From a virus (taxonomy: Duplodnaviria > Caudoviricetes), in IMG/VR virus record IMGVR_UViG_3300036791_000329, positions 1-48,289 of that record: a stretch of DNA of 48,289 nucleotides; one strand, 5' to 3'. The position numbers and the translations under genes are program-made. Within the stretch, counting starts at the first letter, position 1. The number at the start of each line of letters is the position of its first letter. The notes under the pieces were generated by a model. That model saw only the letters and a program-made list of their open reading frames with translations. It was not told the DNA's origin and did no database searches. Positions 7,293 through 45,418 of the stretch are shown one piece after another.

Positions 7293-7393
7293 AACCCCTC
7301 ACTTAACGATATGCACCGCTTCTTTGCGGACTGTGCGATGACCTCAATTAGTGCCGGGATATTTATCCACGCCCGGCGCGTGGCTTCCCTGCT

Positions 7394-7438
7394 TTCCACA
7401 GACAAAGGAAACTGATAAATTGTTTATTCCACAGACAA
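7394..7438 (+). repeat. 12-bp direct repeat upstream of the antisense cassette
   Basis: TTCCACAGACAA at 7394-7405 and 7427-7438, 33 bp apart. Confidence 0.75.
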
Positions 7439-7452
7439 TTTAAGGAAAATCA

Positions 7453-7551
7453 ATGAGCGACAATACGGGCTTTGCACAAGACCACATGCCGCCTCGAATG
7501 CAGCCAAAACCACAACCGAAGCCTATTCCGGCACCAGCGCCAAAGAAGTAA
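7453..7551 (+). CDS. 32-aa proline-rich peptide A, not in ORF track
   Basis: TAAGGA RBS at 7441-7446; MSDNTGFAQDHMPPRMQPKPQPKPIPAPAPKK. Confidence 0.65.
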   Translation: MSDNTGFAQDHMPPRMQPKPQPKPIPAPAPKK

Positions 7552-7576
7552 CGGTTGTTAAAGAGAAATAAGCCAA

Positions 7577-8041
7577 ATGGAAAGAGAAGAACTGCTTTAT
7601 CGAATCGAATACTCATATAACTTTGAAACGATGTTCAGCAAAATTACATGGCGTATTGATAAGTTGATTTCGTTGGTACTTCTGGTTCTTGGCTCAGCTG
7701 TTTTCTCTGGAGTTCAGGGGACGTTCTGGTTTGGCTTGTCCATAGCCATGCTGACGGCGATACAGATGACCTATCAGTATGCTAAGGCTTCTGAGCATTC
7801 ATCTATGCAGGGTAAGGCTTACATGAAACTACTGACGCTTGAGTCTCGGTATTCGGATGATGATCTGCTGGATAAAATTGTCGAAATTGAAGACGGTGAC
7901 CACAAGCCGTGGTTCCTATTGTCAGATCTGGCAATGATACGAACGAATATCCGTAGGGGTTACGATGCAGAATCAGACCCTCAACTCCCCTGGTACATGA
8001 AGGTTATTGGTTGGTTTGCCGGAGACTTGCCTCGCCGGTAA
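7577..8041 (+). CDS. SLATT-like two-TM membrane protein; candidate exclusion/defence effector
   Basis: N-terminal helix, two adjacent hydrophobic segments, then A..H......Y..L helix; antisense to the pL operon, just downstream of N (sieB slot). Confidence 0.65.
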   Translation: MEREELLYRIEYSYNFETMFSKITWRIDKLISLVLLVLGSAVFSGVQGTFWFGLSIAMLTAIQMTYQYAKASEHSSMQGKAYMKLLTLESRYSDDDLLDKIVEIEDGDHKPWFLLSDLAMIRTNIRRGYDAESDPQLPWYMKVIGWFAGDLPRR

Positions 8042-8058
8042 TCCTGACAGGGCGAAAT

Positions 8059-8136
8059 ATGAGCAAAAAAGATATTACTCCAAACCACGCTATTCCGCGG
8101 CCAACTCCCAAGCCGCCGCAACCACAGCCAAAGTAA
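8059..8136 (+). CDS. 25-aa proline-rich peptide B, not in ORF track
   Basis: MSKKDITPNHAIPRPTPKPPQPQPK; weak AGGG RBS; ends just before the terminator hairpin. Confidence 0.55.
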   Translation: MSKKDITPNHAIPRPTPKPPQPQPK

Positions 8137-8142
8137 TTATCA

Positions 8143-8163
8143 GCGCGACTTCGGTCGCGTTTG
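8143..8163. terminator. hairpin between N and the convergent cassette (tL1-like, possibly bidirectional)
   Basis: CGCGAC-TTCG-GTCGCG then TTTG. Confidence 0.6.
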
Positions 8164-8168
8164 TCACC

Positions 8169-8495
8169 TCAAATAAGTGGAATGCTGTGGCCTTTCATTT
8201 TCTGCCGCGCGTTAACCTGCTGGCCGAGCGGGTTTCTTACCTTTTGCCATACACGCTGATTTCGCTTATCCATCTGTCCGCGTAACGCTTCGTGAAGCTC
8301 AGCTGCTTTAGCTATCTGTGTAGCCATTTCATTGCGAATTGGATTAGCAGCTTTGCTAACACGGTCAACCTTCTTGCTCAGCGTTAATACCTGACGCTGT
8401 GGCTTAGCGCTCACTCCCACTAACAGGGGGTTGGCAACTTTCCATTCTGCTCGCTTAGCTTCACGGCGTTCGCGGCGGCGTTCTTGTGCGTTCAT
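8169..8495 (-). CDS. N: antitermination protein N
   Basis: MNAQERRRERREAKRAEWKVANPLLVGVSAKP closely parallels the lambda N arginine-rich motif. Confidence 0.93.
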   Translation of the reverse strand: MNAQERRRERREAKRAEWKVANPLLVGVSAKPQRQVLTLSKKVDRVSKAANPIRNEMATQIAKAAELHEALRGQMDKRNQRVWQKVRNPLGQQVNARQKMKGHSIPLI

Positions 8496-8860: not shown

Positions 8861-9235
8861 ATGGACACAAAAGAGTGGGTTGATGGACTGCGCTGGCTAA
8901 GTGCTGAGCAAATTGTTGATGTGCATTTCAAGCTACAAGAGCAAATCAAGAAGCATTACAAACTGCGGGCAGAAGGGGATAACCTGGAAAAAGCTATTCA
9001 GCTTTGTGAGCAGCATGTCGCCTTGGCTGAATTAGCTCTTCCTGCGTTGAAAGAAAAACATGATGCGCAGGCCAAAGAATATGAGGAGCTGCTTGGTAAG
9101 AAGAGTCCAATGGAGTTCTACACGCCATCCCATCATGGTTATCGGCAATTGATCACAATTATGAAGAAGCAGCAGAACTTTGAAAGGGTGACTGAGCTAG
9201 AAGCAAAGCGGGATGCTGAAGGATGGCGTTCGTAG
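8861..9235 (+). CDS. hypothetical helical protein in the immunity region
   Basis: Strong GAGGAGGGG RBS, possible extended -10 TGTGATACT; converges on bstA. Confidence 0.75.
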   Translation: MDTKEWVDGLRWLSAEQIVDVHFKLQEQIKKHYKLRAEGDNLEKAIQLCEQHVALAELALPALKEKHDAQAKEYEELLGKKSPMEFYTPSHHGYRQLITIMKKQQNFERVTELEAKRDAEGWRS

Positions 9236-9271: not shown

Positions 9272-10192
9272 TCAGTGGGGTTTCGGTAATTCTGGCTTCT
9301 TAACAGCTTCAACAATTCGCAGTGCATCAGCTGCAGATAATGCGCCATCGGCTGATTTTTTAGATAAATAATTGCCAAGACGGTTTGGAATATAGTCATT
9401 TTGCATCCATCTTCTAAATAGTCCTAGACCATCATCAGGGTATATCCAAGCTTCTTGAGGGCCTGCGCGATGCTGAGGGAACCAGTCTGGGTAGACGTGA
9501 GGTGATTTGGTGCGTGCTCCATATTTTTCATCGCATTCGTTAGCAACCCAGAATTTAGACCACATGGTTCCTACACTTATATCTGGAATTGCTGAGGGAC
9601 CAAAATCAAAATTGCCTTTGACCATTTTTAATGAAAGATCGGCCATTTCTCGAAAGACAGAAAAATACCCGAATGGGACTTGATCATTCATCAAGAGCCT
9701 TTCATGGAAGCACTCCATGGCACCACGTTGTGGATTTTCTGGATCAATACCAACACTTAGATATATGAATCTGCGAAGCTGGGAGCCGGCCAGCTTACGA
9801 AAGTTAGATAATGCAACTTCGCGGCTACCCTGAGTAGCTTCAAATGCGTAGTATTCGAGAAATGCCATACACACAACATCAGGAAAAGCGTTTGTCTCAG
9901 TGCCTTGAATTATTGTTTTATGAAAAAGCCTGTTGAGATTTAAGCCTTGCTCTTGAAGCTTTTTGTCGATGAATTGCCCGCGAGGCTTGGTCCTTTCGTC
10001 ATCCCAATTAGAGGCTAGGCGAAGGAGGGCGGCGTGATCAACACCGCATAACCTTGCTAGACCTCTAAGTGTCAAAAAGGGTGAGCCATCATTCATGACT
10101 CCCATTTGAATGCCATCAACATCAGCTTCTTTAATTGGGTAAAGATCAATTTGCAGCTGGTGACCGGACAGGGCTAGCGATAGGTTATCCAT
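9272..10192 (-). CDS. bstA: BstA-family abortive-infection protein
   Basis: 306 aa directly downstream of cI; MGV.NDG.P.LT.RGLA..CGV, KPRGQ, VCMA.LEYYAF, SVGIDP.NP, FSVFREM, PDISVG, HVYPDWFPQ match BTP1 BstA as recalled. Confidence 0.85.
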   Translation of the reverse strand: MDNLSLALSGHQLQIDLYPIKEADVDGIQMGVMNDGSPFLTLRGLARLCGVDHAALLRLASNWDDERTKPRGQFIDKKLQEQGLNLNRLFHKTIIQGTETNAFPDVVCMAFLEYYAFEATQGSREVALSNFRKLAGSQLRRFIYLSVGIDPENPQRGAMECFHERLLMNDQVPFGYFSVFREMADLSLKMVKGNFDFGPSAIPDISVGTMWSKFWVANECDEKYGARTKSPHVYPDWFPQHRAGPQEAWIYPDDGLGLFRRWMQNDYIPNRLGNYLSKKSADGALSAADALRIVEAVKKPELPKPH

Positions 10193-43489: not shown

Positions 43490-45418
43490 TTAATTAATAA
43501 TGAGATTATACATCCCTATCTTTTTGCCAATGATCCTGCTCCCCTCGTATGAAAGATGGCCTTTGTCTCTGTAAATTAGAGTATCACCAATGCTTGATTG
43601 GCAGATGCCATTGGAACAAATCGCATCTTTAAGCCATATAACATTTGTATCTTGAGAAATGATATTTATTCTCCTGTATATCTCCTTCTGTTTATCAGAT
43701 ATATCAGTTGATGAGAAATCACATACCGACCTTCTTAAATTCAGGGATGAAGTTTTTAAAAGACAAAAACCTATATCTTTCCCCTCTTTGTCCTCAGGGG
43801 TTGGCGCGACAATTGTAACATTTTTTCCAAGTTCTTTTAATTTATTGACTGTAGCTAAAATCATGTTATATGAATCGTTTGGGCTGGCTATAAAACTTCT
43901 TCCTGAACGGTCAGTAACATAATTACTAGCGGCCAACTGTGGGTATGGTGAAGAAATTACTACATTCTTGATAGAAGGAATTTTCTTTACCATATCGATG
44001 ACTCTATCGTTAGACAGGATGCAATTTTGCGCCCCAAAAATTGTGCTTGATCGAGAAAATCCAATTATCGGTTCGCATTGAGATACAGTTGCTTGGATGA
44101 GCTTTACGCTAGGATTTGATGCGATAATTGCAGGCACTATTTGCATCGCGTAAGAATCACCCCATACTAATATTTCTGGTTTATCTGAAGTGCGGCATTC
44201 AACGTAATTATGAAACTCTCGTTCACATTTTTTACTTAACCCAAAATTACCACGTAGTCTATGATTCACATTAGCATATGTTTCATTGGAGCTAAATCTA
44301 TTCATATGTGATGGATAGGTTACCCCTGATACTCCAAAAGTAATAAAGGCAACACTTCCAACAGCAGTGAATGTGAAAATCTGCTTTGCAGTAAACACAC
44401 CTTTCTCTCTAAAAGGTTTCTCAATTACCCTCCAGCTAAAATATGCAATAAGAATCGTAGTAGCTATAAGCAAGATCATTATTAAAGGTCTTGGTTCGCT
44501 AATGCTTTTATAGCGATAAAATGCAAATATTGGCTGATGCCATAAGTAAGCGCTATAGCTAATTAGTCCAAAGAATCTGATTTTTGTAATAGAAAGGATT
44601 TTACCAACGAGCAATTGATTGTTGCAAAAAACCAGAATTAGAAATGAACCCGCTACGGGTAATAATGTATATAAGCTAGGGTATGGCATTGTTTTATCAA
44701 AAACTAAAACAGATAAAATAATCATCAGAACACCCAAAATTGACATGATGTTCGCGAGGCTCTTTTTAACTCCTATCCCTTTGTTAGAAATGAATGCACC
44801 TATTGCGCCAAAAAGCAGTTCCCACGCTCTTGTATGTAAAAGATAGAATGCGTTCGTTGGATCTGATACTGATAATTTTTGAGCAAGAATTAGGCTAAGG
44901 ACAGCCAAGCCCACAACTAATAGTAAAGTGAATTTTTTTCCAACTTTCCATGCGGCGAACATAATCAACGGGAAGAATATGTAATACTGCTCCTCTACTG
45001 CCAATGTCCACGTATGCAGAAATGGTTTTAGTTCAACGTTTGGTGAAAAATAACCACTTTCAGAGGCGAATAGGAAATTAGATGTGAATGTTGAAACAGA
45101 AACTATACTTTTATAAAAACTGTTTATATCATCTGGCAGTAGATAGTAATATCCAAAAGGGATGCACACGATAATCATGAAAAATAAAGCTGGCATTATC
45201 CTGCGAGCACGTCTCTCATAAAACCTGACAATACTAAATTTTTCAGCCTGTAGTTCCTTTAAAAGGATATTTGTTATCAAATAACCACTAATAACAAAAA
45301 ACACATCTACACCGACAAATCCGCCAGAAACCACTGAAGGGAAGGCATGATAAAAAATAACAGATAACACTGCGATAGCACGCAACCCGTCAATTTCTGC
45401 TCTGTATTTTAATGACAT
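43490..45418 (-). CDS. acyltransferase_3 + SGNH protein; probable O-antigen O-acetyltransferase (OafA/OafB-like)
   Basis: YRAEIDGLRAIAV, GVDVFFVISGYLI, RRARRI.P, HTWTLAVEEQYY, GDSY, DKGHL; AT-rich, antisense to the late operon. Confidence 0.9.
   Translation of the reverse strand: MSLKYRAEIDGLRAIAVLSVIFYHAFPSVVSGGFVGVDVFFVISGYLITNILLKELQAEKFSIVRFYERRARRIMPALFFMIIVCIPFGYYYLLPDDINSFYKSIVSVSTFTSNFLFASESGYFSPNVELKPFLHTWTLAVEEQYYIFFPLIMFAAWKVGKKFTLLLVVGLAVLSLILAQKLSVSDPTNAFYLLHTRAWELLFGAIGAFISNKGIGVKKSLANIMSILGVLMIILSVLVFDKTMPYPSLYTLLPVAGSFLILVFCNNQLLVGKILSITKIRFFGLISYSAYLWHQPIFAFYRYKSISEPRPLIMILLIATTILIAYFSWRVIEKPFREKGVFTAKQIFTFTAVGSVAFITFGVSGVTYPSHMNRFSSNETYANVNHRLRGNFGLSKKCEREFHNYVECRTSDKPEILVWGDSYAMQIVPAIIASNPSVKLIQATVSQCEPIIGFSRSSTIFGAQNCILSNDRVIDMVKKIPSIKNVVISSPYPQLAASNYVTDRSGRSFIASPNDSYNMILATVNKLKELGKNVTIVAPTPEDKEGKDIGFCLLKTSSLNLRRSVCDFSSTDISDKQKEIYRRINIISQDTNVIWLKDAICSNGICQSSIGDTLIYRDKGHLSYEGSRIIGKKIGMYNLIIN

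Follow-up and report, generated by a model that had tools for sequence, protein, structure and literature searches.

The peptide-flanked membrane gene reported in an earlier reading of this phage DNA is a real feature, and it is larger than first reported. It belongs to an enzyme-free family of SLATT-like proteins that is accompanied, in the cargo slots of prophages, by hidden short peptides with a histidine and proline core, which annotation mostly misses. The SLATT effectors known to date respond to nucleotide or cDNA signals, whereas here an enzyme-free family is paired with peptides. We consider it probable that the peptides act as partners of the membrane protein, and we lean towards a killing-type phage defence as the function of the cassette. 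Our best explanation, which we hold tentatively, is a peptide-restrained abortive-infection module, in which cytoplasmic peptides would hold the membrane effector shut until infection removes them.

Locus and surrounding elements

The window, by which we mean the whole stretch of 48,289 nucleotides that was analysed, is a temperate phage of 48 kb whose early region is lambdoid and whose virion genes are podovirus-like according to Pfam, PHROGs and PADLOC. Integrase, exonuclease, N, BstA, cI, cro, O, P and Q were identified among its early-region and other genes. The cassette is on the plus strand, opposite N and the pL operon, with N on one side of it and the small leftward early genes on the other, and the N transcript would run antisense through it. 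The ORF listing bore out the three ORFs that the first-pass annotation had placed on the strand opposite the pL operon, and the ribosome-binding site (RBS) and the downstream hairpin that it had described around them are both present (please see Table 1 for coordinates). The large gene and ORF B have weak RBSs in the window copy, and that of ORF A is stronger. The U-run of the hairpin is short in the window copy and full in L001, L002, L004 and L005.

Table 1 Features of the cassette region. Positions are those of the window. Column Strand denotes the strand on which the feature is read, and column Basis denotes the evidence or a description.
Feature	Position	Strand	Basis
H-type pseudoknot	7353..7383	- only (pL early strand)	5-bp stem, 1-nt loop, 6-bp stem, 8-nt A-rich loop
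Predicted sigma-70 promoter	7393..7421	+	By eye; kept in close loci; under scan threshold
12-bp direct repeat	7394-7405 and 7427-7438	+	Both copies fall in weak-hairpin loop regions; region z -0.3
Shine-Dalgarno of ORF A, TAAGGA	7441..7446	+	Sequence
ORF A	7453..7551	+	32 aa
Gene of 154-aa helical-hairpin membrane protein	7577..8041	+	PHROG 6315; putative remote SLATT relative
ORF B	8059..8136	+	25 aa
Hairpin, likely intrinsic terminator of the cassette	8141..8160 (approx.)	+	-12.3 kcal/mol, z -3.5
Antiterminator N	8169..8495	-	PF11438, phrog_271

The BstA abortive-infection gene (9272-10192, minus strand; phrog_6287, PADLOC E 1e-117), a second, known defence gene of the phage, lies directly after cI. 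A 124-aa gene (8861-9235, plus strand; phrog_22434, function unknown) is situated between pL and bstA and is convergent with bstA, and an O-antigen acetylase moron (phrog_6705) is found at 43490-45418 on the minus strand.

The cassette had also been assigned to the slot occupied by sieB. The membrane gene does follow N directly in the pL operon and in reverse orientation, which is the sieB position of lambda and P22. We found no SieB match in Pfam or PHROGs for the window protein, and none in Pfam for the members of its family; both collections presumably hold a SieB model. Judged by its sequence, the 154-aa protein is not SieB.

The predicted promoter is composed of a -35 element at 7393-7398 (4/6), a 17-nt spacer and an extended -10 element at 7413-7421 (TG plus 4/6). 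Part of it falls within the upstream copy of the 12-bp repeat. The repeat had been counted as part of one unit with the three ORFs. It is present, but it precedes unrelated cargo genes too and is not part of the cassette unit. The pseudoknot was found upstream of 18/51 clusters of the family on the antisense strand compared to 3/51 on the sense strand and 1/147 base shuffles, where the 51 clusters are those with L080 retained and 4 of the 18 antisense pseudoknots came from the scan for the motif itself. In the pseudoknot alignment, 96% of the cells were paired and 7 of the 11 pairs had two-sided changes, which is above all 500 shuffles, with the covariation biased in favour since the rows were chosen for structure. 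No Rfam family was found at the element of the window.

Among the matches listed (many of L120-L240), numerous small antisense genes of lambdoid and P2-like prophages that have nothing else in common carry the pseudoknot and the repeat ahead of them, the pseudoknot just upstream of their promoters. The element and the repeat occur in HK225, HK639, SopEPhi and Fels-2, and lambda and P22 are absent from the 16 matches. Since the element and the repeat are shared by unrelated cargo, they mark a generic cargo slot and not this cassette. The pseudoknot may mark or protect the end of the antisense transcript. At L085 a variant form lies ahead of the peptide, and at L130 the platform element is present twice, once on each side of a peptide-effector cassette, which may be a vestige of cassette exchange.

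The membrane protein and its kinship to SLATT

The large protein matches PHROG 6315, a group of unknown function (E 1e-26), and the profile search gave a family of 162 representatives at 50% clustering. Its AlphaFold2 model is all-helical (pLDDT 94.4), with helices at residues 3-43, 49-66 and 68-87 and three more. In the layout of the model, a long helix runs into membrane helix 1, a loop of five residues follows, helix 2 continues into another long helix, and the C-terminal part consists of three short helices. The arrangement expected of SLATT, i.e., a hairpin of two membrane helices with cytoplasmic helical extensions, is present in this model, and hydropathy peaks at residues 25-60. The description of the gene as two-TM agrees with the predicted helical hairpin, but the hydrophobicity of the second membrane helix is no more than moderate, with 19-residue means of 1.8 at 29-47, 1.4 at 41-59 and 0.9 at 49-67.

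The claim that the protein is SLATT-like is supported in the sense of a probable remote kinship, to which NCBIfam, PADLOC, Foldseek and hhalign each contribute a weak line. In Pfam, SLATT did not match the window protein at E 0.1 or any of the 123 family members at E 0.01, and the distant member L090 scored 18.3 bits against a cut-off of 27. The NCBIfam model SLATT_4 matched 14/123 members at E <= 0.001 (best 2.2e-5, by E and not by the curated cut-off) and did not match the window protein. PADLOC models for 2TM-effector and DRT-SLATT were matched by 3/123 and 1/123 members, respectively, and the window protein was without a PADLOC match. When Foldseek was run against viral models, SLATT-annotated models made up 11 of the 50 listed rows, with probability up to 1.0 and TM up to 0.64, none of them at E <= 0.001. 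The hhalign comparison to one SLATT_4 protein gave E 0.003 and a probability of 10% over 119 columns, and the Atlas gave 0.90 to a cluster with 12% SLATT_4. Solved structures gave no sequence match and no Foldseek match at E <= 0.001; the best VIA-align value among them (Z 7.3) corresponded to unrelated helical hairpins. Taken together, these weak lines suggest that the 154-aa protein is SLATT-like, as a remote relative and not a member of the curated SLATT family.

There were no signalling genes (SMODS, SLOG, TIR, RT) beside the window gene, and 15 neighbours taken from 8 other loci proved to be phage genes or unrelated ones. Fused longer forms were absent among 8,000 candidates, which is weak evidence. 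The complex prediction for two effectors and two copies of peptide A had a score of 0.01 and a mark of 0.32 with controls that did not fold, and it carries no weight in either direction.

The peptides and their pairing with the membrane gene

Peptide A has a variable N-terminal segment of 10 residues, followed by His11, a proline-rich core with Arg at His+4, and a basic tail. In peptide B, His10 is followed by a proline-rich core that likewise has Arg at His+4, and the peptide contains Pro-Arg-Pro. The first-pass annotation had proposed one design for both, consisting of polar residues, an Asp-His or Asn-His dipeptide and a proline tract. The histidine and the proline tract that follows it hold, but the residues before the histidine are not all polar, and Asp or Asn before His is common without being general to the family. 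As had been thought, A, the large gene and B travel together: both peptides flank the large gene in 12/12 close loci, in which the large protein is 64-86% identical (7/7 viral loci, L017 of Trabulsiella, L018 of Enterobacter and 3/3 metagenome loci; L017 is the same locus as L003). The pairwise dN/dS of 9 loci was 0.115 for A over 18 codons around His, 0.034 for B over 16 codons and 0.086 for the large gene; the pairs are non-independent but the contrast is large. In ORF B, 0/16 first, 2/16 second and 16/16 third codon positions were variable. Purifying selection is strongest in this downstream peptide, and its residues before the histidine are also conserved. By the selection test both micro-ORFs are genuine genes and, as the codon changes indicate, the peptides are selected as amino-acid sequences.

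For the family as a whole, grouping at 90% identity reduced 125 loci to 53 clusters, and 50 clusters were counted after dropping L119 (unpublished genome G1068), L080 and L077 (broken or truncated). A lack of Pro-rich ORFs at homologous loci had been named as the result that would speak against the cassette, and the pairing held. A Pro-rich short ORF ending 45 nt or less before the gene start was found in 31/50 clusters compared to 5/225 control genes (p 9e-23), and a composition-blind rule, requiring a short ORF with a Shine-Dalgarno sequence, gave 37/50 clusters compared to 24/223 controls, with the caveat that there are spurious ORFs among the controls and that the clusters lack phylogenetic independence. 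Inspected by eye, the 19 clusters missed by the Pro-rich test consist of 9 in which a short polar ORF is present but less rich in proline, 2 having arrays further upstream, 1 ambiguous case and 7 having none. An intact gene without a peptide was found in 7/50 clusters (L016, L107, L110, L112, L088, L113, L114), and at L094 the gene is intact and the start of its peptide is ambiguous. The upstream peptide is present in 61/61 Fels-2-type loci. In the family, the peptide ORF usually lies immediately ahead of the gene, with 3-25 nt between its end and the gene.

A downstream Pro-rich ORF was found in 12/50 clusters compared to 4/207 controls. In 9 clusters the downstream ORF has the His core, five of them of the window group and four (L091, L092, L095, L101) at 32-36% identity. 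The peptide-gene-peptide architecture that drew attention to the locus is real and recurs in these four distant loci, but it is only one variant, and a single upstream peptide is usual. The His-to-Arg spacing is common to both peptides in 9/9 two-peptide clusters (by eye, no tree), being +4 in the five window-like clusters and +6 in the four distant ones. L087 (2090-2415 region, minus strand) has three separate tandem Pro-rich peptide genes having Pro-Pro-Lys cores without His, and L093 (2101-2541, minus strand) has, upstream of the membrane gene, a polyprotein of 147 aa in which differing linkers separate six His-x-x-Pro repeats, and for which an Atlas search gave no match. Given these single, paired, tandem and polyprotein forms, bracketing counts as one route among several to supply 1-6 copies of the core. 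The 37 upstream ORFs have lengths of 26-51 aa, contain His in 30/37 and have a hydrophobic stretch in only 2; from their sequences, we predict disordered peptides that reside in the cytoplasm.

The sole coherent peptide-less group is that of L016, L107, L110 and L112, which alone replaces S13, Y82, D108 and R122 together, and in the peptide-less L088, L113 and L114 other conserved residues are lost. The joint loss of the four residues fits a putative binding site lost with its ligand; drift or a changed function would look similar. The group of four is found in Salmonella-type non-phage surroundings and is possibly a domesticated form. In a distant SLATT-like branch (L083, L090, L117, L118; 15-18% identity), short upstream polar ORFs end in a different Pro-containing core, which suggests that the pairing extends to this branch. 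Broken effectors beside intact peptides (L077, L078, L116) were set aside, as gene size alone explains them. The tblastn search of peptide B against phages, run without a positive control, gave no match.

Homologues of the membrane gene were found in 32/401 genomes of one enterobacterial family sample, 8/401 of the order and 3/400 of the class (each count includes the centre genome), and a Fels-2-type homologue was found in 40/5,426 E. coli genomes. Homologues are also present in Salmonella prophage Fels-2 and other phages, and the slots vary from beside cI to between Q and lysis and P2-like early operons. The Fels-2 peptide and membrane gene (L011:2887-3435) are unannotated, and STM2733.1 of the record is an ORF of the opposite strand. 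An assembled RNA contig of run X23 spans the Fels-2 peptide and gene (L032:2800-3647); its flanks are covered too and either strand is possible, which makes it a weak hint. Long flanking ORFs mostly run in the opposite direction (28/45 upstream, 35/43 downstream).

Candidate mechanisms and known systems

In a peptide-restrained module, the lysogen would transcribe the unit from its own promoter, and the peptides, being without a hydrophobic signal stretch, would remain cytoplasmic. They would be made in excess, as they come first in the operon and have the stronger RBS, and their His...Arg-Pro core would dock on conserved polar residues, e.g., S13, Y82, D108 and R122, at the cytoplasmic face of the membrane protein. 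Infection, through host shut-off, proteolysis or sequestration, would deplete the unstructured peptide, and the freed effector, as an oligomer, would breach the inner membrane and kill the cell. The six-repeat polyprotein would suit multivalent binding to such an oligomer. During the lytic growth of the phage itself, the opposite-strand pL transcript would silence the unit.

We favour restraint because of the gene order, the RBS strength, the co-loss of the conserved polar residues and the proposal made for DRT10, for whose defence SLATT is required and in which a repetitive cDNA ligand is proposed to hold SLATT inactive until infection (in part, PMC12632851). The family-wide pairing, the amino-acid selection, the shared His-to-Arg spacing within two-peptide clusters, the remote SLATT kinship and the precedent of P22 SieB with Esc support it as well. 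The seven peptide-less clusters and L094 count against it, and their genes must in that case be non-toxic or complemented in trans. Restraint is also weakened by the two different conserved peptides with distinct segments before the histidine, which simple inhibition does not need, by the literature, where the SLATT effectors of type VII Thoeris are described as ligand-activated (in part, 10.64898/2025.12.03.692087), and by the scores of the window protein, which stays under the curated SLATT cut-off and has no match in PADLOC.

The main rival, which we regard as unlikely, is a protease tripwire. The segment before the histidine would be a bait, and its cleavage by a phage protease would expose the His-led core, which would then activate the effector; several peptides or repeats would widen the range of phages sensed. 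In agreement with this, the segments before the histidine differ between copies within one locus and between the six L093 repeats while the core is kept, the His is 8 to 34 residues from the start, and the corresponding residues of B are conserved. Peptide loss would be harmless, which fits the 7/50 peptide-less clusters, and there is a precedent for protease sensing in CBASS, where CdnG is activated when T4 gp21 cleaves a disordered loop (in part, PMC12991175). However, the residue in front of His is highly variable within the family, 7/37 upstream ORFs are without His, and the cassette encodes no protease. If the tripwire were true, it would be categorically new: a widespread undescribed prophage immunity, to which we assign the same low probability, in which peptides replace nucleotide second messengers and phage proteases free a His-led ligand that opens a SLATT-like pore. 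Its precursors would be hormone-like, occurring as single, paired, tandem or six-repeat polyproteins with variable bait.

It is rather improbable that the peptide and the membrane protein cooperate outside killing, either to block DNA entry (superinfection exclusion) or to tune the envelope or physiology of the lysogen. The sieB-type position, the varied moron slots and the persistence of the peptide-less group outside obvious prophage context would agree with such a role. On the other hand, the modelled protein is almost without a periplasmic part, having only the five-residue loop there, and the literature presents SLATT relatives from defence systems as effectors that kill (in part, 10.64898/2026.04.29.721553; 10.64898/2025.12.03.692087).

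The first-pass annotation had offered two further alternatives, neither of which fared well. That the micro-ORFs are cis leader peptides, EF-P-sensitive or stalling, which set the translation of the membrane gene has a small probability. Although the peptide is usually directly upstream and Pro-Pro occurs in 19/37 upstream ORFs, it is absent from 18/37 including the Fels-2 peptide, three prolines in a row occur in only 7/37, and a conserved polyproline stall motif directly upstream was not found. ORF B, moreover, is downstream and yet under the strongest selection. At L087 and L093, the pseudoknot element and a promoter-like element lie between the peptides and the gene, with the peptides ending 94 and 138 nt upstream, respectively; this suggests that the peptides can act at a distance and argues against a purely cis leader role. 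Proline-rich antimicrobial peptides are Arg-rich and cationic and have a Pro-Arg-Pro motif, and there is very little chance that the present peptides bind the ribosome and act alone in that manner, since, short as they are, with a median of 20% Pro, often a basic tail and, in B, Pro-Arg-Pro, the 37 upstream ORFs have a median of 6% Arg, Pro-Arg-Pro in 6/37, a net charge of -9 to +9 that is zero or below in 15/37 and no export signal, and the peptides were seen solely beside the membrane gene, where the search was made.

If the peptides gate the protein, the cassette would be a minimal system (<800 bp) in which to study SLATT pore switching, and prophage defence would gain a sensing principle that is new. 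Membrane effectors elsewhere that seem to stand alone may likewise be accompanied by overlooked peptides.

The SLATT effectors of DRT10 (UG17), type VII Thoeris (ThsH) and SMODS/CBASS-linked SLATT_4 likewise have a two-helix membrane hairpin with cytoplasmic helices. Unlike those systems, the present family comes, in the window and among the neighbours from 8 other loci, without an RT, TIR or nucleotidyltransferase gene, its constant partner is a ribosomally encoded peptide, and it falls under the Pfam cut-off. No SLATT-like gene with peptide partners is described in the literature surveyed, including the available part of PMC9122126; the tables of large defence screens could list the family. 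PepX of Streptomyces (in part, PMC11256431) is unrelated.

The SieB-Esc-sas system of P22 and lambda resembles the cassette in its slot, its membrane-acting exclusion gene, its proteinaceous modulator and its antisense lytic transcript (in part, PMC7067206, PMC12197685), and in P22 the phage itself encodes a protein, Esc, that bypasses SieB (in part, PMC12197685). However, SieB and Esc both come from one gene, whereas the peptides of the cassette are separate ORFs and the family is also found in other slots and in P2-like phages. The tripwire has its likeness in protease-sensing CBASS, in which a disordered bait is cut by a phage protease, with the difference that the peptide here is free and there is no second messenger. 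As in type II toxin-antitoxin (Abi) systems, the small partner gene comes first and has the better RBS, in 37/50 clusters and in the window. The guard-type systems Panoptes and Hailong are said to rely on a constitutive restraining signal. With them, and with the type II toxin-antitoxin Abi systems, the peptide-restrained module would share a constitutive inhibitor whose loss frees the effector; it would differ from them in that the inhibitor is not a nucleotide, DNA or a folded DNA-binding antitoxin but a disordered peptide of 20-50 aa, supplied in 1-6 copies.
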